Made by a program: the position numbers and the translations under genes
The notes under the pieces: model-generated
Seen by the model: the letters and a program-made list of their open reading frames with translations, nothing else
Database searches by the model: none
What the model was told of the DNA's origin: nothing
Source of the DNA: a virus
Virus record (IMG/VR): IMGVR_UViG_3300045988_023748
DNA length: 64,000 nucleotides
Strand: one strand, 5' to 3'
Shown here: one piece after another, positions 1,210 to 63,626 of the stretch
How the letters are laid out: each line of letters begins with the position of its first letter
Numbering within the stretch: the stretch's first letter is position 1

Positions 1210-1955
1210 CATACGGCTGGTGAGTCCGCAACTCACTGTTATTAATTTCAACAAAACATCCATTTACTTGTTTAATTCGTAATAGATTCGTATCTTTGAG
1301 GTACGAATTTCTAATTTAGACGAATATGACAAGTAAATGGATTGACGAGAAAGCTCAGCTTGAGCATTTAATTTTGGTAGATAAGCTCAGTTATGAGGAA
1401 ATAGGAAGAAGATATGGTTGTTCAGGTACTAATATTAAAAATGTAGCGCGTAGACTTGGCATAGAGCTACCAGTTAAACGTAAAATTAATCCTAAAGAAA
1501 CATTCAATAGGAAGTACAAATACTGTTTAAACTGTGGTGCAGAACTTATTAGTTATAACGGAAGTTATGGCAAGTACTGCGGCCCTAAATGTCAATTTAA
1601 ACATGCTCATATGCTTGCTTACAAGAAGCTTTTGGACGGTGATGAAAGTATAATGAGAGCTAACTACTCTCCTAAGGCTTTCAAGAAAGATATTCTAAAG
1701 GAGCAAGGTGGAGTATGTGCTATATGTGGTATGAAGCCTATCTGGAATGGTAAAGAGCTGGTCTTTATCATTGATCATATAGACGGACATGCATCTAACA
1801 ATCGTAGAGATAATTTACGATGCATATGTCCTAACTGTGATTCACAGCTTGATACTTATAAGTCTAAGAACAAGTGTGGAGAACGTTCCTACTACCGTTA
1901 CCATAAAAATGAAATTAATAACAATAAGGATTAGGTTCGACTCCTAGTTCTTATA
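1210..1955 (+). mobile_element. ~745-nt insertion (candidate intron) in the tRNA anticodon loop carrying an HNH endonuclease gene and an internal TATCTTTG promoter box
   Basis: Lies between the two matching tRNA halves. Contains the HNH ORF 1326..1934, a TAnnTTTG -7 box at 1291-1298, and an extra T-arm-like piece at 1935-1958. Confidence 0.4.
1326..1934 (+). CDS. HNH homing endonuclease with N-terminal HTH
   Basis: HTH-like LSYEEIGRRYGCSGTNIKNVARRLGI, and an HNH/Zn motif CAICG...DHIDGHASNNRRDNLRCICPNCD. Confidence 0.7.
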   Translation: MTSKWIDEKAQLEHLILVDKLSYEEIGRRYGCSGTNIKNVARRLGIELPVKRKINPKETFNRKYKYCLNCGAELISYNGSYGKYCGPKCQFKHAHMLAYKKLLDGDESIMRANYSPKAFKKDILKEQGGVCAICGMKPIWNGKELVFIIDHIDGHASNNRRDNLRCICPNCDSQLDTYKSKNKCGERSYYRYHKNEINNNKD

Positions 1956-1993
1956 CTAAGCCACATATCTGCGTTCGAATCGCAGTCGGGGTA
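1956..1993 (+). tRNA. 3' half of split tRNA-Arg(UCU)-like gene (anticodon stem 3' strand, variable loop, T-arm, acceptor)
   Basis: ctaa gccac atat ctgcg ttcgaat cgcag tcggggt a. The T-arm is perfect, and both the acceptor and the anticodon stem pair with the 5' half at 1176-1209. A mature anticodon loop would read cttctaa (UCU). Confidence 0.4.
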
Positions 1994-2018
1994 CTTATTA
2001 ACTAATAATTAAAAATGT

Positions 2019-2228
2019 ATGATGCTGATTATTTATATTATCGGATGTGTAGTTGCTTTGATGGCTGTGTGTTTCTATGAATATCGTGACTATAAGAGAA
2101 ATTCTAATTACACTTACAACTTGTGTGACTTATTAATGGAATTAACTCTTGTAATAACTTCATGGATTGGTGTTATTGCAGTTATAGTATTTGTATCTCC
2201 AGGTATAGTGATGTTTAGAAAGAAGTAG
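2019..2228 (+). CDS. small membrane protein (tandem paralog 1)
   Basis: ORF track. Hydrophobic, with a SWIGVIAVIVFVS segment shared with the next ORF. Confidence 0.4.
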   Translation: MMLIIYIIGCVVALMAVCFYEYRDYKRNSNYTYNLCDLLMELTLVITSWIGVIAVIVFVSPGIVMFRKK

Positions 2229-2646: not shown

Positions 2647-3153
2647 TTGAATAATATGAGTGAAGAACTACTTGAAGTATCATGTGAACAGTATGAAAAA
2701 GAATTGGAATCGCTTAACGAGGTAAAAGAAGAGGTTGATAATTTATTATCACACCGTAAAGCTCTCAAGTCTTTAAATTGGATGTTTTATGCTAATACAG
2801 TTGTATTAATTGCTACTGTAACTCACAGTATCTTATGTTATATAAATGAAGCATTCACTACTACTACACTTATATGTGCATTAGTAGTGTTATACTGTAA
2901 TTATTCAATCCATAAGTACTATAAGAGAAACAACGATAGGATAGCCATTATTAATAAAGTTGGGGAAAGCTACAATAGATGTCTTGAACTACTAGAATAC
3001 TTGATAGCGGTATTAAACGAACTTGACGAGACTGATAACCGAGACAAGTTTGTAGAAGACGTAGGAGAAGACTTAGCACTAGCCATTCTAGAATACGAGA
3101 TGTGTAAACAAGTATTTGCAAATGCAGTGCGCGAAGGTTACGAGAATGAGTAA
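2647..3153 (+). CDS. hypothetical membrane/coiled-coil protein (168 aa)
   Basis: ORF track. A central hydrophobic stretch with acidic termini. Confidence 0.45.
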   Translation: MNNMSEELLEVSCEQYEKELESLNEVKEEVDNLLSHRKALKSLNWMFYANTVVLIATVTHSILCYINEAFTTTTLICALVVLYCNYSIHKYYKRNNDRIAIINKVGESYNRCLELLEYLIAVLNELDETDNRDKFVEDVGEDLALAILEYEMCKQVFANAVREGYENE

Positions 3154-3619: not shown

Positions 3620-4138
3620 ATGAGTGATGTGTATTATATCATAGGTGGCGTTGCCTATGGTATCTTTATCTTGCAATTCATAATATCATGGGTTGCAGGT
3701 GAACTTGATGTTGATGTGGACTTCGATGGAGATGCCGATTTCGACATTGGTGATGTTGTTTCATTTAAAGGTCTTATTCACTTCCTGATGGGATTTGGAG
3801 GATGGACTTCTATTAAACAACTACTAGGTTATGAGATAACCTGGATTGATTGGTTAATAGGATTCTTTATAGGTCTTGTATTTGTGTTTATGCTGTATCA
3901 TTTATATAAATTCTGTATGAAATTACAGAACTTTCCAACCGACGAACCTCTTGTATACTTAGCAGGAAGACCAGCTAGAATATATGTTCGCTTAGATGAT
4001 AAACGCTATTTAGCTTTTATAAATATAAGTGGAGCATCTAGAGAAGTAGAACTCGTTTCTATTTCAGGTACTTCATATGCGGTTAATCAAGTAGTTACAA
4101 TTCGTGAGGTTATGGATAACACATTGTACATAGATTAA
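3620..4138 (+). CDS. NfeD-like membrane protein (N-terminal TM helices, C-terminal beta-barrel-like domain)
   Basis: Two or three hydrophobic segments, then an acidic linker and a soluble C-terminus. Sits immediately upstream of an SPFH gene, as in nfeD-stomatin and yuaF-floT operons. Confidence 0.5.
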   Translation: MSDVYYIIGGVAYGIFILQFIISWVAGELDVDVDFDGDADFDIGDVVSFKGLIHFLMGFGGWTSIKQLLGYEITWIDWLIGFFIGLVFVFMLYHLYKFCMKLQNFPTDEPLVYLAGRPARIYVRLDDKRYLAFINISGASREVELVSISGTSYAVNQVVTIREVMDNTLYID

Positions 4139-6202: not shown

Positions 6203-6234
6203 GGAGGTATGGGTGAGTGGTCTATACCAGGGTT
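6203..6234 (+). tRNA. 5' part of a type-II tRNA-like gene (acceptor plus 3-bp D-stem with long D-loop)
   Basis: ggaggta tg ggt gagtggtctat acc a gggtt. The acceptor pairs with tgcctcc at 6805-6811 (one G-U). Its 3' end overlaps the GTG start of ORF 6217. Confidence 0.3.
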
Positions 6235-6240
6235 AAAAAT

Positions 6241-6672
6241 ATGGATACAAAAAGGTTAGGAAATATAGGTGAAGCTCTAACTCAAGCAGAGTTTGTTATG
6301 CGAGGGATTCCTTTGTATTTACCATTTGGAGAGAATGAAAAATCTGACATGATTATTGATTTAAATGGTAAATTAAAAAGAGTTCAATGTAAAACATCAG
6401 AGCAATTTATAGATAATAAAATAGTGTGGAAGTTATCAAGTAGAACAACATCAGGTTGTCATCAATACACTAAAGATGAAGTTGATTTCTTTGCACTATA
6501 TAATTTAGAATCTAAGATACACATCTTAATACCTATAGAAGATTTAAATGGAAGATATTCATTAAAAGTATCAGTTCCTTTTAAAGAATCTAAAAATCAG
6601 AGTGACCCGATTAACTGGGAAGATTATACATTTGATAAGGTATTAAAAATTCCTAAACTAGATTGTAATTAA
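6241..6672 (+). CDS. PD-(D/E)XK-fold endonuclease-like protein (Hjc/restriction-endonuclease-like)
   Basis: Motifs GNIGEA...SDMIIDL...KRVQCKTS. Probable start at ATG 6241 (the track ORF opens at GTG 6217). Lies between the two halves of a split tRNA-like gene. Confidence 0.4.
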   Translation: MDTKRLGNIGEALTQAEFVMRGIPLYLPFGENEKSDMIIDLNGKLKRVQCKTSEQFIDNKIVWKLSSRTTSGCHQYTKDEVDFFALYNLESKIHILIPIEDLNGRYSLKVSVPFKESKNQSDPINWEDYTFDKVLKIPKLDCN

Positions 6673-6758: not shown

Positions 6759-6812
6759 CTAAGACTCCGAACCTCTAAAAGGGTTCCGCTGGTTCGAATC
6801 CAGCTGCCTCCG
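6759..6812 (+). tRNA. 3' part of split type-II tRNA-like gene (hairpin, T-arm gctgg-ttcgaat-ccagc, acceptor tgcctcc)
   Basis: Perfect T-arm and an acceptor complementary to 6203-6209. No 5' partner within 100 nt. Confidence 0.3.
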
Positions 6813-6862
6813 CGCTGATTAATGAGAGTTGTGAAATTATTATTAACCTAATTACTAAAATT

Positions 6863-7154: not shown

Positions 7155-7228
7155 TGTCGGGTTCGTCTAATTGGATAGGACGCATGTCTCTCACACATGT
7201 AATACGGGTTCAAATCCCGTTGGGAATA
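7155..7228 (+). pseudogene. tRNA-like fragment (D-stem, anticodon arm catgt-ctCTCac-acatg, T-arm acggg-ttcaaat-cccgt) without a pairing acceptor stem
   Basis: Three arms fold, but the 3' tail tgggaat has no complementary 5' strand. The tail TTGGGAATAC recurs at 7298-7307. Confidence 0.3.
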
Positions 7229-7488: not shown

Positions 7489-7528
7489 AAGAAGACTACA
7501 GCAGTATAGTTTTATATCAAAGTCTTCT
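7489..7528 (+). repeat. conserved hairpin element, copy 3
   Basis: aagaagac tacagcag...a gtcttct. Ends 7 nt before tRNA-Thr. Confidence 0.55.
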
Positions 7529-10130: not shown

Positions 10131-10212
10131 CTACTAATTATGATTTTAATATGTTAATGAGTTTGTTATTAATAAGACCTTACTATTAATTGTGTTAGTC
10201 TTAAAGAATTAA

Positions 10213-13941: not shown

Positions 13942-14016
13942 GGCGACATAGCTCATTTTGGTTAGAGCGTGATACTCATAATATCAAGGTTGGGTGTTCG
14001 AGTCACCTTCTCGCCA
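13942..14016 (+). tRNA. second CAU-anticodon tRNA (Met/Ile2)
   Basis: ggcgaca/tctcgcc acceptor (one C-C mismatch), anticodon arm tgata-ctCATaa-tatca, T-arm gggtg-ttcgagt-cacct. Confidence 0.75.
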
Positions 14017-14041
14017 CATTACTAATTAATACTTAAAGATT

Positions 14042-25722: not shown

Positions 25723-25785
25723 TATCTAAATAGAAGATTAGACCATCTAAAGAGATAAGACTTATTATCTTATAAAGTTAATCTT

Positions 25786-26937: not shown

Positions 26938-27737
26938 TTTACTAAGACACAACTAACTCAGAGGCGCATGGCTAAGAAGCAATCCGAAGACTGTGACAAA
27001 GACAGAGATGGAGTTAAATACAAGTATCCTGAGCGCACCTGTAAAGAATGTGCTAAATATCCCTGTTTCAGAGGTATTGAGAAGAGTGTATGTGACTTCG
27101 CTAAATACGGTTGTGTAACTTATAAAGATGGTAAAATTAACACTAACGAATCAGAAGAATGACTGAGTACAACATTTATGCAGGGTTGAAGGGTAATATT
27201 ACCTATCAAGAAACAGAAGAATTCGAAACACAACAGGAAGCTCTAGATAGAGGTAGAGATATTGCCCACGCAGATGCAGAAGCATTTGGATGGAATCCAG
27301 ACGATCTAGAATGGAAAGCAGTTCCATTTGAAGAAGATAACATTCCTGAAGATATGCGTGTAGGCTCAAGATATCTATGATAATAGAGACCTTACGTGTG
27401 CGGCTTGTAGCTGCACAAGAGAACGTAGGTGGCTATATTCAATATGTGTTTGAAGACTTAAAAACTGGTGCATATAAAGCGTGTACGCGATGTCCCAATT
27501 GGGATAGTCCATTCCTAGTAGTTGGGGACATCGGATTCTTAAAATATAGGGAAGTAGTAGCTGGTAAGGATACTTGGTACGATTCTGAGAATAATATTCA
27601 AGTTCCTTATAAGAATACTGACTTTTATTTTGAGACTTTTATTTACGAGAAGCCACCAGAAGGTGAGATTATACTGTAAAAGATTATCTAAATTAAAGAG
27701 ATTAGACCATTACATCAAATTAATATGATATATCTGT

Positions 27738-29030: not shown

Positions 29031-29303
29031 TAGGTGACATTTGTCCAGTATAAACTCCTCTAATTGCCGGAAGTCCCTTAGAGCTTTAAGTACTGTAATC
29101 TAGTGGTAACATTAGAGGTCACTCAAGTTAACGCTTGAGGTGTAGTAATAATCTTAAAGATTGGGTAATCACATTAAAAGGCAGCCAAGCATCCTACTTT
29201 AGGATGAAGGTTCATCGACTATCTCGAAAGAGAGTACAGACGTATTACATATTTATGACTGTAATAAATAAGCAATATGTTTGGAAACGGGGAGAGCTTG
29301 TAG

Positions 29304-29311
29304 TATCTTTG
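29304..29311 (+). promoter_or_regulatory. Bacteroidetes-type -7 box TATCTTTG upstream of intron GIY-YIG gene
   Basis: TAnnTTTG 24 nt before ATG 29335. The same box precedes other endonuclease genes at 1291, 45586 and 62831, with variants at 41677 and 47237. Confidence 0.5.
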
Positions 29312-29334
29312 CATAGAAACTAATAAAGTATTAC

Positions 29335-30084
29335 ATGAGTAAAACTTATCAATTCTATGCGTTATTTAATGAGGAATTTCCTCAAGAATGGAGATACATT
29401 GGAGTAACTAGTAAACAGATCAATGAAAGATTCTCTCATCATAAATATTGTGCGACTCATGATTCCCATAGAGCCTTACCAGTGCATAAATGGATGTATT
29501 CCGTTTACAGCAAAGGAGGTAAGATAGGGTGGGTGAAGATTCATGAATGTAGTGAATCTGAATGGGAGTATGAAGAACAAAGGCTAATCTCTGAAAATTC
29601 TAAAGTACATGAACTTCTTAATTTAGACAAAGGTGGTAAAGGAGTTATTACTAAAGATAAGAGAGATAGGTCTGGTATCGAGAGAAGTGTAGAAGCTCAT
29701 AAGAAGAGTATAATACAATTAGACAAGAACGGGAATTTTGTTCAGGAGTTTGATGCAGTAACATCTGCATCAGAATTAACAGGAATTTCTAGAACTAGTA
29801 TAGGTAATTGTCTAAGGGAGAGGTCTAAAACAGCAGGTGGATATGTATGGGTATATAAGGAACATTATTCTAAAGCAGAAGTTGCTGATATTCCTCCTAG
29901 TAAAGGAAGGAACATTAGAGTATTTAAATATTCACCTGATATGGAACTTATATGTGAATACAATTCTATATCTAAAGCTGTTAGTGGTGTGTGTAAATCT
30001 GGACATACATTAACAAGACATCTGGATACTAATGAGTTATACAAAGGATTTTACTGGTTTACGTCCAAGCAAGTTAAGATATAG
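29335..30084 (+). CDS. GIY-YIG homing endonuclease
   Basis: YQFYALFNEE...WRYIGVTSKQINERFSHH GIY-YIG motifs, with C-terminal DNA-binding repeats. Confidence 0.7.
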   Translation: MSKTYQFYALFNEEFPQEWRYIGVTSKQINERFSHHKYCATHDSHRALPVHKWMYSVYSKGGKIGWVKIHECSESEWEYEEQRLISENSKVHELLNLDKGGKGVITKDKRDRSGIERSVEAHKKSIIQLDKNGNFVQEFDAVTSASELTGISRTSIGNCLRERSKTAGGYVWVYKEHYSKAEVADIPPSKGRNIRVFKYSPDMELICEYNSISKAVSGVCKSGHTLTRHLDTNELYKGFYWFTSKQVKI

Positions 30085-35257: not shown

Positions 35258-35304
35258 GAAATAATTAGTAACTTTAAGGTTCTAACATTAAGTATCGAAT
35301 CAAT

Positions 35305-36306
35305 ATGGTATTAGAGTATGAACCTAAAATTACTAAGAAGTATTTACTTGAAAGGCAATCTCAGGAGACATATCTTGAGTATTATCTTGGTATCCCAGTA
35401 AAGAAGGGACTGTTTAAATCTCCGTTGAGAAATGATAACTCTCCTACGTGTTCCTTTTATAGGAATGCGTCTGGGGATATCATCTTCAATGATTTCAGTG
35501 GACAATTTTATGGCAATTTTATCAGTGTAGTAATGTATAAGTATAGCTGCTCTTATTATAAGGCTTTACAAATCGTTGCTAATGATTTTGGTTATATCAA
35601 ACACAAGACGTTGCCTAAAGGTAGTAAGCCAGTAATTAGTAGTACTGAGTTTAAAGACAAGGGACCTGCTGTTATACGGGCTGAAATACAGGAATTCACT
35701 GATAAAGAGCTGGAATGGTGGCATAGATATGGAATTACTAAGGATATTCTAAAGAAATTTAGAGTGTACTCATGTAAAACTGTATTCCTGAATGGGAATT
35801 ATTATGCTACTACTGGTTCTCAGAACCCCATATTCGGCTATTATCGAGGTAAAAACGACAAAGGCATTGAGTTATGGCGTATATACTTTCCATTTAGGGA
35901 CAAAGGAACTACAAGATTCCTTTCTAATTGGAAGGCTATCATGTTGCAAGGAGCTCATCAACTCCCAGCAGAAGGTAATCTGTTAGTAATTACTAAAAGT
36001 ATGAAGGATGTAATGTGCTTATATTCTTTAGGGATTACTGCAATAGCTCCTAATTCTGAGAATCTATTCATAACTGAATCTCAGTTTGAGAAACTCAGCA
36101 AGAGATTTAAGAAGATAGTAGTGTTCTATGACAATGACTTAGCTGGAATTCATAATATGAATCGGATAAGGAAGCAATTTGGAGTAGAATGCCTATGGAT
36201 TCCTAGATCCTATGGAGCTAAGGATATATCCGACTTTCATGCTAAATATGGTAGAGATGCAACACTTAACTTAATTAACGAAGCATGGAAGGTACTGAAG
36301 AAGTAA
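35305..36306 (+). CDS. DnaG-like primase (TOPRIM)
   Basis: N-terminal RNDNSPTCSF resembles a degenerate primase zinc-binding motif. TOPRIM VVFYDNDLAG. Confidence 0.55.
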   Translation: MVLEYEPKITKKYLLERQSQETYLEYYLGIPVKKGLFKSPLRNDNSPTCSFYRNASGDIIFNDFSGQFYGNFISVVMYKYSCSYYKALQIVANDFGYIKHKTLPKGSKPVISSTEFKDKGPAVIRAEIQEFTDKELEWWHRYGITKDILKKFRVYSCKTVFLNGNYYATTGSQNPIFGYYRGKNDKGIELWRIYFPFRDKGTTRFLSNWKAIMLQGAHQLPAEGNLLVITKSMKDVMCLYSLGITAIAPNSENLFITESQFEKLSKRFKKIVVFYDNDLAGIHNMNRIRKQFGVECLWIPRSYGAKDISDFHAKYGRDATLNLINEAWKVLKK

Positions 36307-39182: not shown

Positions 39183-39215
39183 ACTTGTCCAATTGGAGAT
39201 AAAGTAGTACCTTTG
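39183..39215 (+). promoter_or_regulatory. Bacteroidetes-type promoter 1 (TTG ... 20 nt ... TACCTTTG)
   Basis: -33 TTG at 39185-87 and -7 TAccTTTG at 39208-15. Confidence 0.45.
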
Positions 39216-39280: not shown

Positions 39281-39315
39281 TTGCTTGGTAATCCAATATT
39301 AAAGCAGTACCTTTG
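39281..39315 (+). promoter_or_regulatory. Bacteroidetes-type promoter 2 (TTG ... 21 nt ... TACCTTTG)
   Basis: Second copy of agTAccTTTG 100 nt downstream of the first, 37 nt before ATG 39352. Confidence 0.45.
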
Positions 39316-39351
39316 TAATACAATAACAAAGAGATTACACTCAATGGAATA

Positions 39352-39909
39352 ATGTTTAAAACTCAATTAATTATGACTAATCAAGTAAATTTTAAGAAAG
39401 TAGAAGTTAAAGGTTACACTAAACAAGAAGCAGTTGCACAAGCCCCATTCCAAGTAATTCGTGATGCTACTCAGGCATGGAAAGCTGCTGGTAAGCCCAT
39501 CACTGACAAAGCATTGAAGGAATTCTGCGCTGAATATCTTACTAAACATACTAAGATGGCTGCTGGTGTTGGATGTTCCATTACGTTTGAGGCAGGTTCT
39601 GCTGACACTCGCGAGCGTCCGTACACTATGATTGACATTAAGAATGAGAAGGGTAAGAGAAAGTATAAGACTGGTTATCAAGGTATTAATCCTGCAACTG
39701 GTGAAGTACTGTTTATCAATTTCGAGACTAAGACTAAGGCTAAAGAAGTAGCTAAGGAGCTGTACACTAAGAAAGACTACACTGGTGACGTATATTGCAA
39801 GTATATTAAGGCAGTAGTTGAAGGTGAGGATGGCGCTTTTGAAGTTAAGTACACTCCGTCTAAGTCAGCTAAGATGGGTACATATATCTGCTTTGGGGTT
39901 GAAGGATAA
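39352..39909 (+). CDS. lysine-rich protein of unknown function, probably highly expressed
   Basis: Preceded by tandem promoters and followed by a strong terminator hairpin. Confidence 0.5.
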   Translation: MFKTQLIMTNQVNFKKVEVKGYTKQEAVAQAPFQVIRDATQAWKAAGKPITDKALKEFCAEYLTKHTKMAAGVGCSITFEAGSADTRERPYTMIDIKNEKGKRKYKTGYQGINPATGEVLFINFETKTKAKEVAKELYTKKDYTGDVYCKYIKAVVEGEDGAFEVKYTPSKSAKMGTYICFGVEG

Positions 39910-39985: not shown

Positions 39986-40054
39986 ATACTTAGTAGCAAA
40001 GAGATTAGAAATTTTATATTAAGGCCGAAAGGCTATCTAATTTACATCAGTAAT

Positions 40055-41623: not shown

Positions 41624-41703
41624 GTTAGAAATTCTATAATTCCATACAAATAGTTTTGATTCGTCCATATTGTTTAGTAACTTTGTCAAAAAGTTATTAA
41701 TAT

Positions 41704-42483
41704 ATGGACGAACAAAATTTTAAATTTAATTATGTATTCCAGGGACAAGATTGTACCCTATCAACTGGAGTCTATAAGATTACTATCCAGAATCATGTTT
41801 ACATCGGTAGTGCAGCAATCTCTTTTAGAAAACGGTGGAGACAACACCAGTTAGACTTTATTAGAGATATACACCACTCTAGGTTCGCGCAGAACGCATT
41901 TAATAAATATGGCATTGCCACATTTGAGATAATGGAATTATGTCCTAGGGAACTATGCATAGAGAGGGAGCAATGGTGGATAGACACTTTGAAACCAGAC
42001 CTGAATATTCAAAAGATTGCTGATAGTGCTTTAGGAGTCAAGAGGACTGAGGAAACTAAGCGGAAATGTAGAGAGGCTCACTTGGGAAAGAGGTTGTCTG
42101 AGGAAGCTATAGCTAAGAGAACAGCAAAGCAAGTTAAGACAATCTATCAATATGATTTAGATGGAAATCTAATCAAGGAATGGGATAGTGTTAAACAAGC
42201 TGGAGAAGCTCTTGGAATTAATAGACCTTCTATTAGTAACTGTTTAAAAGGTAGATACAAGTCTGCTGGGGGATTCATTTGGAGGTATTCTGTGGAAGAG
42301 GTTTCTCCTGTGAAGAAAACCAAGTCTATAGAACAATATGATTTGGATGGAAATTTAATTAAAGTATGGGACAGTATAAATTCTATTGAAAATGGGACTG
42401 ATTACAAAAGGAAGACAATTTATGCTTGTGCAAATGGTCAAAATAGTACAGCGTATGGATATGTATGGAAGTATTGTAGATAA
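41704..42483 (+). CDS. GIY-YIG endonuclease with NUMOD-like repeats
   Basis: VYKITIQNHVYIGSAAISFRKRWRQH, and a C-terminal IEQYDLDGNLIK repeat. Confidence 0.7.
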   Translation: MDEQNFKFNYVFQGQDCTLSTGVYKITIQNHVYIGSAAISFRKRWRQHQLDFIRDIHHSRFAQNAFNKYGIATFEIMELCPRELCIEREQWWIDTLKPDLNIQKIADSALGVKRTEETKRKCREAHLGKRLSEEAIAKRTAKQVKTIYQYDLDGNLIKEWDSVKQAGEALGINRPSISNCLKGRYKSAGGFIWRYSVEEVSPVKKTKSIEQYDLDGNLIKVWDSINSIENGTDYKRKTIYACANGQNSTAYGYVWKYCR

Positions 42484-42489: not shown

Positions 42490-43668
42490 ATGCTTAATGT
42501 CAGAATTATTACTATAATGCCTAAGAAACTTACTACTGAAGAATGGATTAATAAAGCTAGAATTAAACATGGAGATAAATATGATTATTCTAAATCTGTG
42601 TACACTGGAAGTAGAGATAGAATAATCATCACTTGTCCGAAACATGGCGACTTTACAGCTATATCCGGATTGCATATTTCTAGAGGGGATGGTTGTCCTG
42701 AGTGTGCTTCATTAGCTAAAAGTAGCAAGCTTTCATTATCTAATGAAGAATTTATTAACCGTTTACGTGACATGTTTGGGGATAATTATGATTACTCTAA
42801 AGTCAAATATAATGGCACTAGAGGGTATGTTACCATAGTATGTCCTAAACATGGTGAATTTAAGGCCCGTGTTGGCACTCTATCGAGAGGTGTAGGATGT
42901 CTGAAATGTAAAGAGGAAGAAAGACTTAAAAAGTTTAATGACCTTTACATAAAGAAATTTAAGGAGTACTACCCAGATTTAGATTATAGTAAAACTGTAT
43001 ATACTGGGTGGGATACTAGAATAGTTATAACATGCCCCAAACACGGTGACTTTGAAGTCCTTCCTAACCACTTTCTTAGGTATAAAGGGTGTCCAAAATG
43101 CTCTGCTGAAAGTCATGCAAAGTATATGCAGAAGTCCTTAGATGACTTTCTAAAGGATGCCAGACGCATTCATGGCACACGTTATGATTATTCTAGAGTA
43201 GAGTACAACGATAGTCGTACAAAGGTCTGTATTGTATGCCCTGAACATGGTGAATTTTGGCAGACTCCAAATAGCCATATACAAGGTAGTGGCTGCCCTA
43301 GCTGCTCAAGTTCAAAGGGCGAAGAAGAGGTATGTAACATTTTGTTAAGTAATGGAATTAAATTTATAAGGGAATACACTATCCAAGTGCCTAATGAGAT
43401 TAACACCTCTGGACACGCTTATATTGATTTTTACTTACCAGAATATAATACCTTTGTGGAATATAATGGCATTCAACATTATAATCCTAAAATGGCATTT
43501 GGCGGGTCTTTCAAATTTGAGCGACAACAAGCTCGTGACGAGTATGTTAGGCAATATTGTAAAGACAATAATATCAAATTAATAGAGATTCGTTATGATG
43601 AAGATGTGTGGGAAGTTTTGACCAGAGAACTTCTTGATAATCAAACAACAAACGAAGAATGCAAATAA
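42490..43668 (+). CDS. multi-zinc-ribbon protein with C-terminal DUF559/Vsr-like endonuclease domain
   Basis: Four copies of the unit CP(K/E)HG(D/E)F...GCPxC. C-terminus HAYIDFYLPEYNTFVEYNGIQH (DF...E.NG.H). Confidence 0.45.
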   Translation: MLNVRIITIMPKKLTTEEWINKARIKHGDKYDYSKSVYTGSRDRIIITCPKHGDFTAISGLHISRGDGCPECASLAKSSKLSLSNEEFINRLRDMFGDNYDYSKVKYNGTRGYVTIVCPKHGEFKARVGTLSRGVGCLKCKEEERLKKFNDLYIKKFKEYYPDLDYSKTVYTGWDTRIVITCPKHGDFEVLPNHFLRYKGCPKCSAESHAKYMQKSLDDFLKDARRIHGTRYDYSRVEYNDSRTKVCIVCPEHGEFWQTPNSHIQGSGCPSCSSSKGEEEVCNILLSNGIKFIREYTIQVPNEINTSGHAYIDFYLPEYNTFVEYNGIQHYNPKMAFGGSFKFERQQARDEYVRQYCKDNNIKLIEIRYDEDVWEVLTRELLDNQTTNEECK

Positions 43669-44438
43669 GTATTGACCAACTCATGAATGGTAAGGCTACT
43701 AGAATAGGTAAGAGAGCATATTTACCAACTGCTGCCTATGTAGAGCCTTTTATTGAAAGAATGTCCAAGTTTACTAAAGACTTTATAGTTGAAGTAGAAT
43801 TGCCTAAACAGGTCACTAGGACAGTCGATGGAGATGTTAATGCAGATGATATCACTTATAATCGTGTACTTATTCAAGCTGTAATGCCAGAGAATTGCAG
43901 AATAGATAATCACGATGAAGTTATTGGTATGGTATATGGATTAGACGTCCGTAAACCAGTAGCTAAGATTTATAGAGGTGCTCTTAATAGAGCATGTACA
44001 AACTTATGTGTCTTTGACCCAGAGTTCTTACAAGTTCAGAACTTAGAGTCTGAGAAGCCTATTAATTATAAAGCTGTTGAACACCTTTTATCACAAACCA
44101 GTGATATTAAATTGATGTTGGACACCTTACATAATACTACATGGGAAGGAACTCCAAGTAATATAGACTCTAATCTAGGTAGATGGGTTAGAAACGCTAT
44201 ATCTATGACCTATAATGGCGGGTATGGAGACGTAAAGATAGGAACAGACCTTGTTGTTAAGGCTTATGGTTCTATGTTTGAAGACCCTGATTCTAGCTAT
44301 TATATAGGAGAGGGTAATGAGGTGGATATGTTTACTGTGTATAATGCATTTACTCAGTTAATTAGTAATGACAAGGGCAAAGATTTGATGAATAGAGCAG
44401 AGAAGACTCTATTACTAAGAAACATATTAAACTTCTAA
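43659..44438 (+). CDS. hypothetical protein
   Basis: ORF track. Confidence 0.45.
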   Translation: MQISIDQLMNGKATRIGKRAYLPTAAYVEPFIERMSKFTKDFIVEVELPKQVTRTVDGDVNADDITYNRVLIQAVMPENCRIDNHDEVIGMVYGLDVRKPVAKIYRGALNRACTNLCVFDPEFLQVQNLESEKPINYKAVEHLLSQTSDIKLMLDTLHNTTWEGTPSNIDSNLGRWVRNAISMTYNGGYGDVKIGTDLVVKAYGSMFEDPDSSYYIGEGNEVDMFTVYNAFTQLISNDKGKDLMNRAEKTLLLRNILNF

Positions 44439-44443: not shown

Positions 44444-45490
44444 ATGTTAGTAATTAAAAGAAATAAGAGAGTAGAACCTTTCGATATTAATAAGATTGAC
44501 GCGGCTATTACTAAGGCGTTCAATGCTGTTAACGAACCAATTGATTCCGATATTTTGGATGATATTAAAGATGAATTGTATATTAACAACATAGTATCAG
44601 TAGAAGAGCTTCAAGATCAAATTGAAAAGGCTTTGATGGCTTGTGATTACTATGATGTCGCTAAAGCATTCATTTTGTATCGACATAAACAAGCTGAACT
44701 TAGAGCATTAGCTGGGAAGAAGCAGTTTATTAAGGATTATGCCAAAGCATCTAATGCTGCTACAGGTAGTAAATATGATGCTAATGCCAATGTTACTGAG
44801 AAGAATATAGTAACTTTAAATGGAGAGTTGTTTAAGGGTGATGTAATTAAAGTTAATAGAGCAATCCTTACAGATAAAATTAGGCAGTTATATGGTGAAG
44901 ATTTAGCTAAGGAGTATATTAGACAACTGGAATCTCATGAACTTTACAAGCATGATGAAACATCAATTATGCCCTACTGCGTGGCTATCACTATGTATCC
45001 GTTCCTACTTGAAGGGCTACAGCCAATTGGAGGTTTGTCTGCCAAGCCTAAGAATCTGGACTCCTTCTGCGGTATGTTTGTTAATCTGGTATTTGCTATC
45101 AGCTCGCAATTCGCTGGAGCAGTAGCTACTGGTGAGTTCCTAATGTATTTCGATTATTTCGCTCGTAAAGAATGGGGTGATGATTATTGGAAACGTCCAG
45201 AAGAGATGGTTGATAAACATAGAAATATTGATAAGACTATTGAACAGAAGTTCCAACAGATTGTATATTCAATCAATCAACCAGCAGCTGCTCGTAACTT
45301 CCAATCAGTATTCTGGAATATCAGTTATTTTGATAAGAATTACTTTGAAGGTTTATTTGGTGAGTTTGTATTCCCCGATGGAACTAAGCCCATATGGGAT
45401 TCTTTGAACTGGTTACAGAAGAAGTTTATGACTTGGTTTAACGAGGAGAGGACTAAGTGCATATTAACGTTCCCTGTGAATTTCGCAGCT
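44444..45490 (+). CDS. nrdD: anaerobic ribonucleotide reductase NrdD, exon 1 (ATP-cone plus N-terminal catalytic region)
   Basis: ATP-cone VIKRNKRVEPFDINKIDAAITKA. Terminates at a TGA that is followed by intron core blocks. Confidence 0.65.
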
Positions 45491-46295
45491 TGATAGAGTA
45501 ATCTATCTCGAACAACTCCTCTAATTGCTGGGACATCTTAACATTAATTAATGGTAGAAAGTTAGGAAATGTAAGTAAATTACATTATCTTTGCACTAGA
45601 TAATTAGTATTAAGACAATCAGCAGCTAAGCATTATGGAAGAAATTTGGAAAGAAATCCCTAACTATGAAGGGTACTTTGAAGTAAGTACTTTAGGTAAC
45701 TTTAGAAGTAAAGATAGAATTATCAAGTATAAGCAATCTGGAACTCGTAATTATCCTGGCAAATCACTTAAAGTAGAGGTTATGCAAGATGGTTACAGTA
45801 GGATTGTGTTAATGAAAGAAGGTGTTAAGAAAAGATATATGTGTCATAGGCTTGTAGCTGAGACGTACATACCAAATCCTGACAACAAACCTTACGTTAA
45901 TCATATAGATGGCAATCGTTCTAATAACTGTGTAGAGAACCTAGAATGGTGCACACAGTCAGAGAATGAAAGACACTCTGTAGATGTACTTGGTAAGTCT
46001 ATGAAGGGGAAGACTGCTCCAAAGGCAGTCAGATGTATAGAGAATGATACTATATATAAATCTATGAGTGAAGCAGTACGCCTTATAGGTAAGCCATCTT
46101 GTGTGGAAGGGTTACATAAAGCTATCAATGCTAATAGGTTGTATCATGGATATACATTTGAGTTCTGTAATGAAAGTTCAACGACTATCTCGAAAGAGAG
46201 TACACTGTAAGCTATTGACAGTGGAAATGGGGAGAATCCTAATAGGATTGTGATATAGTCTGACCTGTATGGTGACATACAGCAGTTCATAAGAG
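45491..46295 (+). mobile_element. group I intron 1 in nrdD with HNH endonuclease (boundaries approximate)
   Basis: AACTCCTCTAATTGCTGGGA is shared with the helicase intron (29058), as are CGACTATCTCGAAAGAGAGTACA and CCTAATAGG. GATATAGTC motif plus a P9-like hairpin ctgtatggtgacatacag. Confidence 0.55.
45635..46210 (+). CDS. HNH homing endonuclease (NUMOD4 plus HNH)
   Basis: EIWKEIPNYEGYFEVSTLGNFRS, then VNHIDGNRSNNCVENLEWCTQSENERH. Confidence 0.8.
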   Translation: MEEIWKEIPNYEGYFEVSTLGNFRSKDRIIKYKQSGTRNYPGKSLKVEVMQDGYSRIVLMKEGVKKRYMCHRLVAETYIPNPDNKPYVNHIDGNRSNNCVENLEWCTQSENERHSVDVLGKSMKGKTAPKAVRCIENDTIYKSMSEAVRLIGKPSCVEGLHKAINANRLYHGYTFEFCNESSTTISKESTL

Positions 46296-47123
46296 AACGC
46301 ATATAGTGTAGCGAACTATATGGAACATATGTGGGAAACTGTAGCACTTCTTACTGATGGAGAGGATGTAGTAGATAAAGAATGGGCAGACTTTACAGCA
46401 GAGATGTATAGTAAGGGACACTCATTCTTTACTTATATGTCTGATTCAGCAGATAGTCTGTCAAGTTGTTGTAGACTTCGCAATGAAGTAACTGATAATC
46501 AATTTAGTTATTCTCTTGGAGCTGGTGGTATTGCTACTGGTAGCAAATCTGTAATGACTTTAAATATTAATAGATTAGTTCAAGATGCAGTTAATAACGG
46601 ATACGATATGATTGAGTATTTACGTGAAAACGTTCAGAAAGTTCATAAATATCAAACTGCATATAATGAATTACTCAAAGACTATTTAAATGATGGTTTA
46701 CTAACTGTCTATTCTGCTGGATTCATTCATATGAAGAAACAGTATTTGACTGTAGGTGTTAATGGAGTTATCGAAGCTGCTGAGTTCTTAGGAATTCCAG
46801 TTAATGATAATCCTACTTACAGAGAATTTATGCAATCTATCCTTAAAACTATTAGCGATGAAAATCGTAAAGCTAGAACTAAGGAGTTGATGTTTAACTG
46901 TGAGTTTGTCCCAGCGGAGAACCTGGGAGTTAAACATGCTATGTGGGACAGGAAGGCAGGTTACTTTGTACCAAGAGATTGCTATAATAGTTACTTCTAT
47001 GCTGTAGAAGATACTTCCTTGACTATACTTGATAAATTTAAACTACATGGTAAAGATTATATCAAGTATCTTGATGGTGAACAATCGCCTGTTATATCTT
47101 TGCGTTTAACCAGACGGGTATAG
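46296..47123 (+). CDS. nrdD: NrdD exon 2 (middle region)
   Basis: The in-frame reading opens at 46296 after the last upstream stop. The track ORF starts at ATG 46320. Confidence 0.55.
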   Translation, partial: NAYSVANYMEHMWETVALLTDGEDVVDKEWADFTAEMYSKGHSFFTYMSDSADSLSSCCRLRNEVTDNQFSYSLGAGGIATGSKSVMTLNINRLVQDAVNNGYDMIEYLRENVQKVHKYQTAYNELLKDYLNDGLLTVYSAGFIHMKKQYLTVGVNGVIEAAEFLGIPVNDNPTYREFMQSILKTISDENRKARTKELMFNCEFVPAENLGVKHAMWDRKAGYFVPRDCYNSYFYAVEDTSLTILDKFKLHGKDYIKYLDGEQSPVISLRLTRRV

Positions 47124-48140
47124 TAATTAACTATGCTAACGGGGAAGCCTGAAGCTTGAGTCGTGAGACTAGATGTATGGTAATCCCGTGGGAAATTAAT
47201 TATGATGTATGAGTTGCACATCTCCATTTAAATTAGTAAATTTGTAGAAATTATTAATATAATGATCATCTATAAAATTACTAACAGTATTAACGGCAAG
47301 GTGTATATAGGTTTAACTACAGTTACACTAGAAGCAAGATGGAGAGGTCACATAAGAGACAGTAGAGTGTGTGATAGACACTTATATAGGTCTATGCGTA
47401 AATACGGTCTTGAGAACTTTACTATAGAAGAGATAGATAATACTGACGACTTTAAGAAGCTTGGGGAATTAGAGAGGTACTATATAAAGACCTTTGATTC
47501 CAGGAATCCTGATAAAGGATATAATATTACTGGGGGAGGTGAATCTAACCAGTTAGACGGAAACCCTAGAGCTAAACTTAAAGTGGAAGATGTAATTCAA
47601 ATTCGAGAGATTTACTCTTATGGAGACTTGAGATGTAAGGAATGTTGGGAGATGTTTAAGGATAGAATCTCCTACTCAGCATTTCAGAAGATTTGGGAAG
47701 GAATTACTTGGCAATCTGTTATGCCGGAAGTTTATACTGAATCTAATAAAGTACATCATAGTTCTCAAAAGAGTAATCCAGGAAGTTTGAATGGTAATGC
47801 AATATACTCTGACGAAGAAGTCTTAGAGATACGTAAGTATTATACTAATCATACCTTAACAGAAACATATGAGAAGTATGGTAGCAGAAGTAAATCTAAA
47901 GATAGCTTTAGAGGTTTAATTGCTAATTCATATAAACATCTTCCAATCTACAGTAAAGTTAAATCTGCCTGGCTACTTAATGGTCAGGAGATAAACATTG
48001 ATAATTATAATCCTGTATCGACTATCCTCGGATCGGAGGAGTAAGGCAGCTATTGGTACGCTGCTTGAAATGGATATTGCGGAAGTACTTCCGTTAAGAT
48101 ATAGTCAGTGCTAATGGAAACATTAGATAAACACGGGTAG
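47124..48140 (+). mobile_element. group I intron 2 in nrdD with GIY-YIG endonuclease (different intron family; boundaries approximate)
   Basis: GAGACTAGATG (P7 5'-like) at 47170 and TTAAGATATAGTCAG (P7 3'-like) at 48083. A TAAATTTG box precedes the ORF. Confidence 0.5.
47262..48044 (+). CDS. GIY-YIG homing endonuclease
   Basis: IIYKITNSINGKVYIGLTTVTLEARWRGH. Confidence 0.7.
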   Translation: MIIYKITNSINGKVYIGLTTVTLEARWRGHIRDSRVCDRHLYRSMRKYGLENFTIEEIDNTDDFKKLGELERYYIKTFDSRNPDKGYNITGGGESNQLDGNPRAKLKVEDVIQIREIYSYGDLRCKECWEMFKDRISYSAFQKIWEGITWQSVMPEVYTESNKVHHSSQKSNPGSLNGNAIYSDEEVLEIRKYYTNHTLTETYEKYGSRSKSKDSFRGLIANSYKHLPIYSKVKSAWLLNGQEINIDNYNPVSTILGSEE

Positions 48141-48150
48141 CGCCCTCCAC

Positions 48151-48423
48151 ATGAATCTAGATGAACATCTTAGTAAGGAACAGTATCGTAACTTGTTGAA
48201 AGTGGCAGCTGTCAATGGTACTAACTATTTCACATTTAATATTCCAAATACTATTTGTAATGATTGTGGACATATTGATAAAAGATATCTCAAAGAATGT
48301 CCTAAGTGTGGTAGTAAGAACATTGATTATGCTACTAGAGTTATCGGTTATTTAAAACGTGTTAGCAACTTCAGTCAAGCAAGACAAGAAGAAGCTAGCA
48401 GAAGATTCTACGCACATGCTTAA
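48151..48423 (+). CDS. nrdD: NrdD exon 3 (Zn-ribbon and glycyl-radical motif)
   Basis: CNDCGH...CPKCG four-Cys ribbon, followed by TRVIGYLKRV (RVxGY glycyl-radical signature). The true exon start is a few codons upstream of the ATG. Confidence 0.6.
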   Translation: MNLDEHLSKEQYRNLLKVAAVNGTNYFTFNIPNTICNDCGHIDKRYLKECPKCGSKNIDYATRVIGYLKRVSNFSQARQEEASRRFYAHA

Positions 48424-60447: not shown

Positions 60448-60726
60448 GACTCGGTAACGAGATCTGTTAATAGATTACTTATTATTAATTTATGATTATT
60501 AATTAATGAGTAATTTACCTTTAGGGGCAGATTTGGATCCATTTGCTCCATATAACATAGAAGAGAAAGTCTTTAAGATTGATATTAACGCTAAAGGATT
60601 AGCATGGTATGAATATTATGGACATCTAGATGTAAATGAAGCTGTAGAAGCTATTAAGAGTAGAATACAAGCCGCACTTAGTAGTTTAGGAGATGTTGAT
60701 ATTAGTAATATTGACATAGAGGTTTC

Positions 60727-62627
60727 ATGATATATCTAGTAAGTAATCAGAAATCACTATTTGAAACTGATGCTTATAAAGAACTGTCTCTGTCTGACGC
60801 TATAGACATGATAATGCCTCATAGTTGGATAGAATATGATAGTGAAACTGCTGGTCTTGATCCATATACAAAACCTCTATTGTGTACTCAATATGGTTTA
60901 GGAGAGGATCAGATAGTTATTGATAATGTAACCATTCCAATTGAAAAGCTTAGATGTGTGCTTGAAGATCCTACTAAAACATTTCTAGGTTGGAATATTG
61001 CGTTTGATTTAAGGTTTCTATATCATCATAGAATAGTTCCTTATAATGTATGGGATGGAATGATTGCTGAGAAGATACTCTATCTAGGGTATCCTCCTCA
61101 GTTTCATAGTCTTGCTTTAAAAGCTGCCGCTGACTTCTATCTTGGTATAGATATTGATAAAACAGTTCGAGGACAAATTATCACACAAGGTTTAACAATA
61201 CCAGTAGTACAATATGCTGCTGGTGATGTTATGTATCTTACTAAGATTAAAGAGAAGCAAGATGCAGAGCTAGAGAAGAAAGAATTAACTAAGGCTGCTG
61301 AATTTGAAATGAAGTTTACTCCAGTAATTGCTTATATGGAATATTGTGGAGCTAAACTTGATCCAATCAAATGGAAGCAAAAGATGTCGAGGGATAAAGA
61401 AGAAGTTAATAAAGCAGAAGCTGCTCTTAATAAGTGGGTAGAGGATTATTATGAAGAACATAAATCTTCTACTGAGGGATATATTAGAGTATCTACCGAA
61501 GAAGTTCCCATTATGGAAGAGTTTAAACTATTTGATTCCCTAAACAATAATATGAGTAATGTAAAGAGAGTTCAGAATCCTCAAACTGGACTTATTCATT
61601 ATGAGTATGATAAAGCATTTCCATATGTAACACGTAATCTACAGGGAGATTTGTTCTCTGGATTTGATACTTGTGCTAAATGTAATGTAAACTGGTCTAG
61701 TAGCCAACAAGTAGTGCCTTTATTTGAACATCTAGGTCTTAACTGTACTACTATAGACCCAAAGACTAAAGTTAAGAAGAAATCTGCTGATATAAAGCTT
61801 ATTAAGCCACAAGCCAATAAGTGTACTATAGTTCCATTATATGTAGAGTATAAGAAGGCTAAAATACTTGTTGATACTTTTGGGCAGAAGTTTATAGATA
61901 AGATTAATCCAGTTAGTGGACGTATTCATCCAGATTATTTCCAATTAGGAGCCGATACTGGTCGATTGTCTGCAACCAACCCGTCCCTAATGAATCTTCC
62001 ACATGATCCATTTACTAGAAGTTGTTTTATAGCAGATTCTGGATATAAATGGATCAGTTGTGATTATAAAGGACAGGAATCCTTCTTAATGGCGTCTATT
62101 GCTAATGATGTGGCCATGTTGGACGAATTAGTAAATGGAAGTGGAGATTTACATAGTCTAACTGCTAGAATAGTATTCACTGATATTCCTGATGATACTC
62201 CATTATCTGAAGTTAAGGCTAAATATAAACCTCTTAGAGATGCTGCTAAAGGGTATGAGTTCTGTTTCAACTATGGAGGAGATTGGAACACTTTAATGAA
62301 GAACTATGGTCTTACTAAGAGAAGGGCTCAAGAAGTATATGATAATTATATGTCTGGTTTCTCTGGATTAAAGAGATATCAGGAATTTAGGAGGGAAGAC
62401 GTTCTAGATAAGGGATATATCCTTCTTAATCCTATTACTAAACATAAAGCATTCATATATGATTGGGATAATCTTTGTAAGATAGACAGCGAATTGGGTT
62501 CTCCAGAAGCTAAATATATGTTAGGATCTAACGGTGATAATTATTACAAAACAAGCTCTCAGCATTTGAGGAGAAGGTTATCTGATTCAATGAAACAATC
62601 TATTAACTATCCGATGAACTCACAAGT
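60727..62627 (+). CDS. polA: family-A DNA polymerase with 3'-5' exonuclease, exon 1 (through motif B)
   Basis: Exo motif YDSETAGLD; motif A SCDYKGQE; motif B RDAAKGYEFCFNYGG. Ends at PMNSQ(V), where Pol I has PMQGTAAD. Confidence 0.7.
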
Positions 62628-63626
62628 TGTGTCGGAGTAAAACTCCCTTAATTCGGTGAACCCTGGAGCACAAGTCGTGATGATTAACTGTATGGGAATA
62701 CCGAGCCAACCTAAACAGTAATGTTTAGAAGTGTGTAGAGACTAGAACACGGATTCCTTACTTTAGATGGTAAGGAAGGTAAAGTTCCACGAACAGGGAG
62801 AATATGTTATGTATTACACATAATATTAATTATCTTTGCAGGGTAATTAATAATTAAAAATTGTATTATGTGTAGTACTAAAATTTGCAAACGTTGTAAT
62901 AAAGAACAATCTATAGACAACTTCTATAAAGTCCCGTCTATGAAAGATGGACATGATAATACATGTAAGACTTGTAGGAAGGAGTTAAGAAGACTAAGAG
63001 ACGGAGTTAAAGTAACACCTATAGTTACTGAAGGTACACTAATCTGTCCTGTATGTAAACAAGAGTTACCAGTAGATAAGTTTGATACTTATGCTAAAAG
63101 TAAAACTGGTAGATATTGGATGTGTAGTGATTGCTATAAAGAGCATACATTAATTAATGGTGGACAAGATAAGAACTATTTCAGGAAGCTTAGAATTAAA
63201 CTATGTCCAGAATATAGAGAAGAAATTCAGCAGCAGAAGAAGGCGTCCAGAGAACGTAACATAGAACAAGCTATGTTAACCAGTGCCAAAAATCGTGCTG
63301 CCAGAAAGGGGTTAGAATTTAACTTGGAACTGTCTGATATAGTAATTCCAGAGAAATGTCCGCTGTTGGAAGTTCCATTCCATTTTGGAACTAAAGAATG
63401 CTATGATTACTCTCCATCTATTGATAGAATTGACAATTCTAAAGGATACGTTAAGGGAAATATTCAAATCATCAGTATGAAAGCTAACGCTATGAAGAAC
63501 TCTGCGTCTCTTGAGGAGTTATACACGTTTTGTAAAAACATATTAAGATATAGTCCGAACTGCACCGAACAGGTACAGAATTAGAGGATAAAGAGCCTCT
63601 AAGATAACAGAATGACAACATGCTGG
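62628..63626 (+). mobile_element. group I intron in polA carrying an HNH endonuclease (boundaries approximate)
   Basis: GAGACTAGAAC and TAAGATAACAG P7-like elements, plus a TATCTTTG box at 62831. Exon 2 has no need for its own start codon if spliced. Confidence 0.5.
62868..63584 (+). CDS. HNH-family homing endonuclease with N-terminal zinc fingers
   Basis: CxxC pairs ICPVCK/CSDC. C-terminal ...IDRIDNSKGYVKGNIQIIS..AN.MK HNH-like motif. Confidence 0.6.
   Translation: MCSTKICKRCNKEQSIDNFYKVPSMKDGHDNTCKTCRKELRRLRDGVKVTPIVTEGTLICPVCKQELPVDKFDTYAKSKTGRYWMCSDCYKEHTLINGGQDKNYFRKLRIKLCPEYREEIQQQKKASRERNIEQAMLTSAKNRAARKGLEFNLELSDIVIPEKCPLLEVPFHFGTKECYDYSPSIDRIDNSKGYVKGNIQIISMKANAMKNSASLEELYTFCKNILRYSPNCTEQVQN

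Follow-up and report, generated by a model that had tools for sequence, protein, structure and literature searches.

The stretch of DNA analyzed here, referred to as the window, comprises 64,000 nucleotides (nt) of the IMG/VR virus record IMGVR_UViG_3300045988_023748 and contains TAnnTTTG boxes upstream of homing endonuclease (HE) genes and of several other genes. It is probable that sites of the form TTG-N19-20-TAnnTTTG are promoters for the primary sigma factor of the bacterial host, that they serve a few conserved transcription units together with most of the mobile HE genes, and that in three HE families the promoter is combined with a hairpin switch. The window itself, as judged from its genes, belongs to a deep-branching crAss-like phage of the human gut and represents its replication and tRNA block.

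The Bacteroidetes sigma-A consensus consists of -33 TTTG and -7 TAnnTTTG elements, the latter being refined in F. johnsoniae to TAHHTTTG, and the -33 element is weak even in that species (PMC6847099). The original prediction that the boxes follow this consensus was borne out, as all nine start-proximal boxes match the refined form. TTG at -33 is present at seven of these nine, being located 19-20 nt upstream of the boxes at 1291, 29304, 39208, 39308, 41678 and 47237, and the distance from the box end to the ATG is 17-41 nt. The box coordinates given earlier were reproduced for TATCTTTG (1291, 29304, 45586 and 62831), TAAATTTG (47237) and TACCTTTG (39208 and 39308), whereas TAACTTTG begins at 41678 and not at 41677. 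The sites thus share with Bacteroidetes sigma-A (sigma-ABfr) promoters the T-A-n-n-T-T-T-G core, the lack of G at nn, a TTG at about 19-20 nt upstream, short leaders, and start regions that lack a Shine-Dalgarno (SD) sequence and are enriched in A at -3, -6 and -13; they differ in being located in a phage genome, in being predicted from sequence and, in two cases, in having no -33 element.

Eight endonuclease-like genes were identified in the window using Pfam and PHROGs; Pfam matches to 'Serglycin' were rejected as spurious products of the GS linkers between concatenated open reading frames (ORFs). Their positions and boxes are as follows.

1326-1934, + strand: free-standing HNH endonuclease of 202 amino acids (aa), matching phrog_10822 HNH (E 2.6e-20) and Pfam HNH_3 just under the cut-off; box TATCTTTG at 1291-1298, -33 TTG at 1268-1270.
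6217-6672, + strand: PD-(D/E)XK endonuclease of the I-Ssp6803I family (Pfam PF11645, E 5e-20; family identity from PMC3424549); no box.
29335-30084, + strand: HE gene in the helicase insertion, with a Pfam match to NUMOD1 only; box TATCTTTG at 29304-29311, -33 TTG at 29281-29283.
41704-42483, + strand: free-standing HE gene with two NUMOD1 domains and a PHROGs match to 'homing endonuclease'; box TAACTTTG at 41678-41685, -33 TTTG at 41655-41658.
42490-43668, + strand: phrog_559 'HNH endonuclease', beginning 6 nt after the 41704 stop; no box of its own.
45635-46210, + strand: HNH gene with NUMOD4 and HNH_3 in nrdD intron 1; box TATCTTTG at 45586-45593, no clean -33 element.
47262-48044, + strand: GIY-YIG gene in nrdD intron 2; box TAAATTTG at 47237-47244, -33 TTG at 47214-47216.
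62868-63584, + strand: endonuclease gene in the polA insertion, with PHROGs matches to 'endonuclease VII' and 'endonuclease'; box TATCTTTG at 62831-62838.

Every HE gene had been expected to carry a box. This applies to six of the eight, the exceptions being 42490, which is located behind a boxed HE gene, and 6217, and the association between box and endonuclease status in the window is strong (6/8 vs 2/98, Fisher p = 4e-7). Gene 39352, listed earlier along with the HE genes, does have two bipartite boxes, each with TTG 20 nt upstream, but it is not an HE gene, as it has no family match and is a conserved core gene in the relatives. Mobility, seen as presence or absence between close relatives, was established for 29335, 41704/42490, 45635, 47262 and 62868, and four related loci were found for 1326. 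The 41704 protein is 100% identical in >20 contigs (L298-L319) whose adjoining exonuclease is 61-78% identical to that of the window, which suggests that this cassette spread horizontally very recently across diverged phage genomes. Other endonucleases are located elsewhere in the same genes in relatives (L175-L254), such as an HNH_3 gene within nrdD in L176 (16848-17546), and the endonuclease repertoire varies even among contigs with shared proteins that are 98-100% identical.

Defined as TTG-N18-21-TAnnTTTG, the bipartite motif occurs nine times on the + strand and once on the - strand of the window, the + strand expectation in a Markov simulation being 2.7 with a maximum of 8. Seven of the nine + strand motifs are in non-coding DNA (p = 9e-7), taken as neither ORF nor tRNA and amounting to 8.4% of the window, and the eighth, at 47095, is intronic. 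A highly improbable alternative is that the boxes are functionless chance T-rich 8-mers in AT-rich spacers. It would account for the count of the bare TAnnTTTG, which is at chance level in the window (69 matches vs 69.2 +/- 8.4 in shuffles), contrary to the enrichment over a shuffled control that a genome-wide count was to reveal, and the unusually long spacers that flank HE genes would offer more room for random matches. It is contradicted by the three-fold excess of the bipartite form over expectation, its 9:1 strand bias and its predominantly non-coding location (7-8/9), by the absence of G from the nn positions of the nine start-proximal boxes (0/9, vs 15/37 boxes within ORFs), by the conservation of the motif across diverged relatives in which the spacers change, and by other long spacers in the window that have no motif. 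The bare boxes are located mostly on the coding strand (48/69), and 12 of those 48 are in non-coding DNA (p = 5e-4).

Two side observations concern further box-like sites. The motif at 47095 is a second bipartite box of nrdD intron 2 (TATCTTTG, 47095-47102), occupying intron positions 17-24 with its TTG 21 nt upstream in exon 2, at 160 nt before the endonuclease gene. One-mismatch boxes TAGTTTTA (7507-7514) and TAATTGTG (10187-10194), each with TTG at proper spacing, precede by ~20 nt the genes for tRNA-Thr (7535) and tRNA-Met (10213), and may be tRNA gene promoters.

The distribution of the motif was further studied in 117 related loci (2.29 Mb) gathered around the exonuclease and helicase genes, in which 435 of 522 bipartite motifs are in the 8.9% of non-coding DNA. 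The ORFs behind these motifs form 14 clusters. In the largest clusters, which are of conserved core genes, a box precedes 107/110 39352-like genes, 86/106 primase genes, 69/69 31335-like genes and 19/73 nrdD genes, and eight other boxed clusters are endonuclease families (41704 type, HNH_3 types, GIY-YIG, endonuclease-VII-like and LAGLIDADG). The box as an HE-specific mark was therefore rejected, since conserved genes in the related loci carry it as regularly. The conserved non-HE genes with boxes in the window are the following.

31335-31556, + strand: conserved gene of 73 aa with no family match; box TATCTTTG at 31305-31312, -33 TTG at 31282-31284.
35305-36306, + strand: DnaG-type primase; one-mismatch box TAACTTTA at 35269-35276, which is a perfect box in most relatives.
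39352-39909, + strand: conserved gene of 185 aa with no family match; bipartite promoters with boxes TACCTTTG at 39208-39215 and 39308-39315.

In aligned promoters of the relatives, the -33 TT(T)G(G) and -7 TAnnTTTG elements are constant and the 19-nt spacer has diverged, as is also the case for TTGG/TAnnTTTG in the 39352-like homologues. Among HE homologues of 70-100% identity the box varies only at nn (TAAATTTG/TAAGTTTG and TATCTTTG/TACCTTTG). Distant HE homologues in unrelated phages have TTGACA-N17-TATAAT and a GGAGG ribosome-binding site instead; since these signals are of sigma-70 type there and of Bacteroidetes type here, HE genes appear generally to bring host-adapted expression signals. 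The boxes are thus a predicted promoter type of the replication block in this phage clade that serves a limited set of transcription units. A natural promoter variant occurs in L003 and L225 (IMGVR_UViG_3300045988_027861), where the 45635-type HNH protein is 100% identical, yet the box is disrupted, with TATCTATCTG in place of TATCTTTG.

Four precise insertions split the helicase gene, nrdD (twice) and polA, and relatives lack them. The nearest database record, MT835470.1, is an unannotated 117-kb phage scaffold from human faeces that is colinear with 43777-64000 of the window at 70-86% DNA identity and has uninterrupted versions of nrdD and polA.

29032-30115, + strand: insertion of 1084 nt in the DExH helicase gene, within the DECH motif; relatives L265, L270 and L263 are contiguous across 29031/30116, and splicing restores EWNCDLLILDECHKY.
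44444-48423, + strand: nrdD, with exons 44444-45477, 46334-47078 and 48136-48423, giving 688 aa when spliced; Pfam NRDD/ATP-cone matches fall on the three pieces, and the gene is colinear with the uninterrupted 688-aa gene of MT835470.1.
45478-46333, + strand: nrdD intron 1, 856 nt; MT835470.1 is contiguous across 45477/46334.
47079-48135, + strand: nrdD intron 2, 1057 nt; MT835470.1 is contiguous across 47078/48136.
60727-63867, + strand: family-A DNA polymerase gene (polA; PHROGs phrog_17), with exons 60727-62615 and 63615-63867.
62616-63614, + strand: intron-type insertion in polA, 999 nt; MT835470.1 is contiguous across 62615/63615.

Excision of the insertions restores the reading frames, yielding a 688-aa NrdD, an uninterrupted PolA and the DECH motif of the helicase. 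In all four, U precedes the 5' splice site and G is the last nucleotide of the insertion, a combination that is a trait of group I introns. Intron_gpI was the sole Rfam family to match the insertions in permissive scans, always in their 3' part, with E-values of 6e-4 (nrdD intron 1), 4e-3 (nrdD intron 2), 0.1 (helicase) and 0.25 (polA). The insertions are termed 'group-I-type' because this model (RF00028) scored under its gathering score of 50 in all four (29.2, 26.5, 17.7 and 16.2 bits), and at the gathering threshold Rfam identified only tRNAs in the window; the ORF may interrupt the group I core, or the core may be of a subgroup that the model represents poorly. The boxes at 29304, 45586, 47237 and 62831 are all located inside the insertions that relatives lack, and therefore the predicted promoter is part of the mobile element and travels with it. 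It had been proposed that the introns carry host-adapted internal promoters, which agrees with the location of four boxed HE genes in precise insertions and does not extend to 1326 and 41704, which are free-standing.

In three of the boxed HE genes, the start codon and the first codons have their complement in the sequence immediately before the predicted transcription start, and a fourth shows a weaker version of this arrangement.

1260-1340, + strand: hairpin of 1326, formed by arms 1260-1280 (5') and 1320-1340 (3'), the latter with ATG 1326.
41654-41717, + strand: hairpin of 41704, formed by arms 41654-41670 (5') and 41702-41717 (3'), the latter with ATG 41704.
62811-62878, + strand: hairpin of 62868, formed by arms 62811-62825 (5', immediately before the box) and 62864-62878 (3'), the latter with the ATG.
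47233-47284, + strand: local hairpin of 47262, with arms 47233-47248 and 47269-47284 enclosing the ATG; it is weaker but conserved, with base pairs formed between the box itself and codons 3-8.

Duplex formation was computed for the start region with the 50 nt that precede the predicted transcription start; the energies, with z-scores against shuffles, are -26.1 kcal/mol for 1326 (z -6.0), -21.0 kcal/mol for 41704 (z -6.7) and -19.6 kcal/mol for 62868 (z -5.1), compared with a mean of -8.6 and a minimum of -15.2 kcal/mol in 81 control genes; boxed non-HE genes have no such pairing. The start is predicted to be more accessible when the RNA begins at the promoter than in read-through RNA, the values rising from 0.13 to 0.70 for 1326, from 0.05 to 0.61 for 41704 and from 0.18 to 0.44 for 62868, the first two shifts being the largest among all genes tested. 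The pairing is retained in L296, a 1326 homologue of 48% aa identity (-25.9, z -7.4), in L170/L171, 62868 homologues of 70% identity (-16.2, z -4.0) with two-sided changes such as GUAUUACAC/GUGUAGUAC to AAAUUCACAC/GUGUGAAUUU, and in L251, a diverged 41704-type gene (-15.7, z -3.5). In predicted folds, pairing thus appears to have been kept through evolution with compensatory change in three HE families; conservation was assessed from independent folds with two to three distinct sequences per set, as MAFFT misaligned the diverged hairpins for column-wise counts of covariation.

Besides the chance-level count of the bare box and the low scores of the group I model, several observations weigh against this combined view of host promoters and hairpins. 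The boxes at 45586 and 62831, both before HE genes, have no clean -33 TTG. In the structural block of MT835470.1, 23 bipartite motifs were found where 8.9 were expected, most of them being within ORFs, although a few good sites exist; non-coding DNA shows no enrichment of boxes (6/50, p = 0.16). Taken with the bare count, this goes part of the way toward refuting the earlier claim, and the box as a genome-wide gene-start signal is unsupported outside the replication block of MT835470.1. The intronic HNH gene of the crAss-like phage cr53_1 has only a near-match (TACGTTTT) and no perfect box, so the feature is not universal in Crassvirales. With respect to the hairpins, L169 retains the pairing weakly, and no significant promoter-to-start pairing was detected at 29335, 45635 and 47262 or in most other HE families of the relatives; the hairpin as a general HE feature was rejected, as 29335, 45635 and several HE families in relatives are without one. 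Finally, a single scan of bacterial genomes with an NrdD alignment, based on poor peptide patterns, returned one irrelevant archaeal metagenome-assembled genome, and no link to a host through CRISPR (clustered regularly interspaced short palindromic repeats) or prophages was found.

The closest known system, by analogy, is the regulation of T4-type endonucleases, of which the present case would be a variant with a Bacteroidetes host promoter and sequestration of the start codon. For T4 I-TevI, I-TevII, I-TevIII and segB and for Aeh1 mobE, the transcripts of the promoter lack the 5' half of a hairpin that hides the ribosome-binding site, which protects splicing (PMC2988022). Both systems have HE ORFs that are located within group I introns or intergenically in an early or middle operon, nrdD as an intron target, and a promoter directly upstream whose transcripts lack the 5' arm of a start-occluding hairpin. 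Unlike in T4, where the middle and late promoters need phage factors, the promoter here is of the host primary-sigma Bacteroidetes type; there is no SD sequence, the stem covering the AUG and the first codons instead; the phage belongs to the crAss-like group; a search for an operator-like copy of the homing site found none; and the hairpin, predicted from sequence and folding, is present in only 3-4 of ~11 HE families. An I-TevI-like switch in three HE families would be new here.

Because the operators to which T4 intron endonucleases bind overlap the endonuclease promoters (PMC2988022), and because the boxes are in or beside hairpins, the element could instead be a structural or protein-binding part of the mobile elements, such as a portion of the intron fold, an I-TevI-like operator or a terminator hairpin. 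This appears very unlikely. The same -33/-7 pair precedes conserved non-mobile genes without a hairpin as well as free-standing HE genes, and each intron promoter region, when compared with its own homing site, showed no significant similarity, the local alignments being no better than those of shuffles. As terminators the hairpins would be ill-suited, as they are A/U-rich, have no U-tract and have a coding 3' arm, and for one of them, which is located within the polA intron, termination would be detrimental.

In the mechanism proposed for the host-promoter reading, the host primary-sigma RNA polymerase would start at the predicted TTG-N19-20-TAnnTTTG promoters, which the phage clade would use for the 31335, primase and 39352 units, and nearly every mobile HE gene would bring its own copy. 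For the four intronic HEs the predicted promoter is inside the intron, upstream of the ORF, and the cassettes 1326 and 41704 + 42490 are free-standing. Where the upstream DNA is complementary to the start region (1326, 41704, 62868 and, more weakly, 47262), read-through transcripts would fold the start site into a stem of 15-21 bp and would not be translated, whereas transcripts begun at the promoter, lacking the 5' arm, would be translated from a short A/U-rich, SD-less leader. Promoter activity, transcription start, translational repression and timing are all predicted. In the crAss-like phage phi14:2, the virion polymerase transcribes the early genes and the host polymerase the middle and late genes (bioRxiv 10.1101/2020.03.07.982082). 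A similar division between polymerases would supply the temporal switch here, as phi14:2 likewise offers a route to delayed expression by the host RNA polymerase inside a unit first read by another polymerase; its middle promoters differ, being tripartite motifs with -35/-10-like blocks usable by the E. coli sigma-70 holoenzyme and not TAnnTTTG. A more tentative extension, somewhat less likely than not to hold, is a switch convergent with that of T4, in which transcription by another polymerase or from distant promoters would read through first, with the HE start locked and splicing undisturbed, and the embedded sigma-A promoters would then give short, translatable mRNAs that lack the hairpin.

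It is also conceivable that the promoters are read by a phage-modified polymerase or with a phage factor, or that they mainly drive the genes downstream of the cassettes, rather than being sigma-A promoters dedicated to HE genes. crAss-like phages encode their own transcription machinery, and MT835470.1 has ORFs of 2,275 and 2,967 aa in the expected block; the promoter at 41678 could also feed 42490, 43659 and nrdD, for which promoters embedded in the T4 seg and mob genes are a precedent (PMC2988022). Nevertheless these possibilities are judged unlikely, as the motif fits the host consensus at all six specified -7 positions, the early transcripts of the phi14:2 virion polymerase have no common upstream motif (bioRxiv 10.1101/2020.03.07.982082), and an internal start borne by an intron cannot usefully express the downstream exon. 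Other spacer motifs were observed in the window, AGATTAGACCAT and TATCTAAAT being located upstream of 25786 and 27738 (spacers 25723-25785 and 27680-27737) and AAAGAGATTA recurring upstream of 39352 and 40055 (spacers 39316-39351 and 39990-40054); they could represent a further type of promoter or operator, such as one used by a polymerase of the phage itself.

A host from Bacteroidota had been suggested from the boxes together with NrdDG and low GC content, the last two being weak evidence by themselves, and it gained independent support from four sources. A tblastn search with the primase retrieved 146 phage records, exclusively crAss-like, Bacteroides, Flavobacterium and Cellulophaga phages, with listed hosts that all belong to Bacteroidota. 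Over its full length, PolA shares 40-45% identity with crAss-like phages, among them isolates from Bacteroides intestinalis and B. cellulosilyticus, and the TerL of MT835470.1 matches only Crassvirales and other Bacteroidota phages, at ~30% identity. SD cores are depleted before starts (3/89, compared with 15% at randomly chosen positions), and the starts in the window show an enrichment of A at -3, -6 and -13, which together are a Bacteroidetes pattern (PMC6847099). The host is probably a member of Bacteroidota, this assignment being at the phylum level only. Published host predictions for the Zeta group of crAss-like phages are mostly Bacteroidales; the hosts of Zeta-type phages are disputed, and iPHoP predictions include Lachnospira (PMC12386605).

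All credible genes of the window are on the + strand, and its GC content is 34-38%. The first 22 kb contain 12-13 tRNA genes, and the remainder is a replication and nucleotide-metabolism block with genes for a DnaB-like helicase, the DnaG-type primase, exonucleases, NrdD and its activase, an SF1 helicase, dUTPase, DNA and RNA ligases and the family-A DNA polymerase. The other half of MT835470.1 is a block on the reverse strand that contains ORFs of 2,967, 2,275, 1,590, 1,554 and 1,523 aa together with portal and TerL genes (PHROGs matches); the giant ORFs of 2,275 and 2,967 aa matched no PHROG. Crassvirales hallmarks are thus represented by the crAss-type primase in the window and by TerL and portal in this relative. 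The phage fits the intron-rich 'Zeta' group (Yutin et al. 2021, PMC7886860; proposed Echekviridae, PMC12386605), as judged from resemblance in contig sizes, tRNAs and intron load. Shared features include the human gut as a source, related contigs of ~95-190 kb, a forward replication/tRNA block and, behind it, a reverse block in which giant ORFs occur, numerous group I introns and HEs that vary among close relatives, and genes for NrdD, dUTPase, DnaG primase, and DnaB and SNF2-type helicases.

The word 'promoter' is absent from the main text of PMC7886860 and PMC12386605, and the crAss001 paper discusses only invertible promoters of the host; a literature search found no prior description of TAnnTTTG in crAss-like or other phages or of internal HE promoters in Bacteroides phages. 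The human gut harbours large numbers of Zeta-type crAss-like phages, which are uncultured and whose intron load hampers annotation. For such phages, the conserved Bacteroidetes -33/-7 promoter and SD-less starts offer a cheap and independent signal of the host phylum, and the boxes provide a first, partial map of predicted promoters for the replication block. The promoters travel with the cassettes and homologues elsewhere have sigma-70-type promoters and SD sequences, which indicates that these elements must re-equip their expression signals upon a change of host range. The hairpin design is a testable model of how introns and HEs could spare the essential polA, nrdD and helicase genes without SD pairing. 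If true, the convergent switch would be the first case of start-codon, rather than SD, sequestration tied to promoter choice in an SD-less translation system, and would provide a signature in the sequence from which the hosts and active endonucleases of uncultured gut phages could be predicted.

Several minor features of the window and its relatives are outside the scope of the promoters. ORFs 43659-44438, 2647-3153 and 3620-4138 (168-259 aa), which adjoin mobile elements or tRNAs, had no match in Pfam or PHROGs. The spacers 1-128, 1935-2018, 2458-2560 and 6780-6860 contain tRNA-like T-arm sequences (e.g. GGTTCGAATCCC) that were called by neither ARAGORN nor Rfam, and the two programs differ at 7161-7228 (Rfam alone) and 13942-14017 (ARAGORN alone); they could be tRNA genes that are degenerate, interrupted or non-canonical. 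In MT835539.1, another phage scaffold from human faeces, the TerL match is in three pieces across 4.4 kb, and the gene is probably interrupted by introns or inteins. The 670-aa product of 18377-20389 matches phrog_1735 end to end (834 bits) and is unusually widespread and highly conserved, being ~47% identical to proteins in 555 phage records from unrelated hosts (Klebsiella, Salmonella, Bacillus, Caulobacter and Clostridioides) that are annotated as 'hypothetical' or 'DNA-directed RNA polymerase'.

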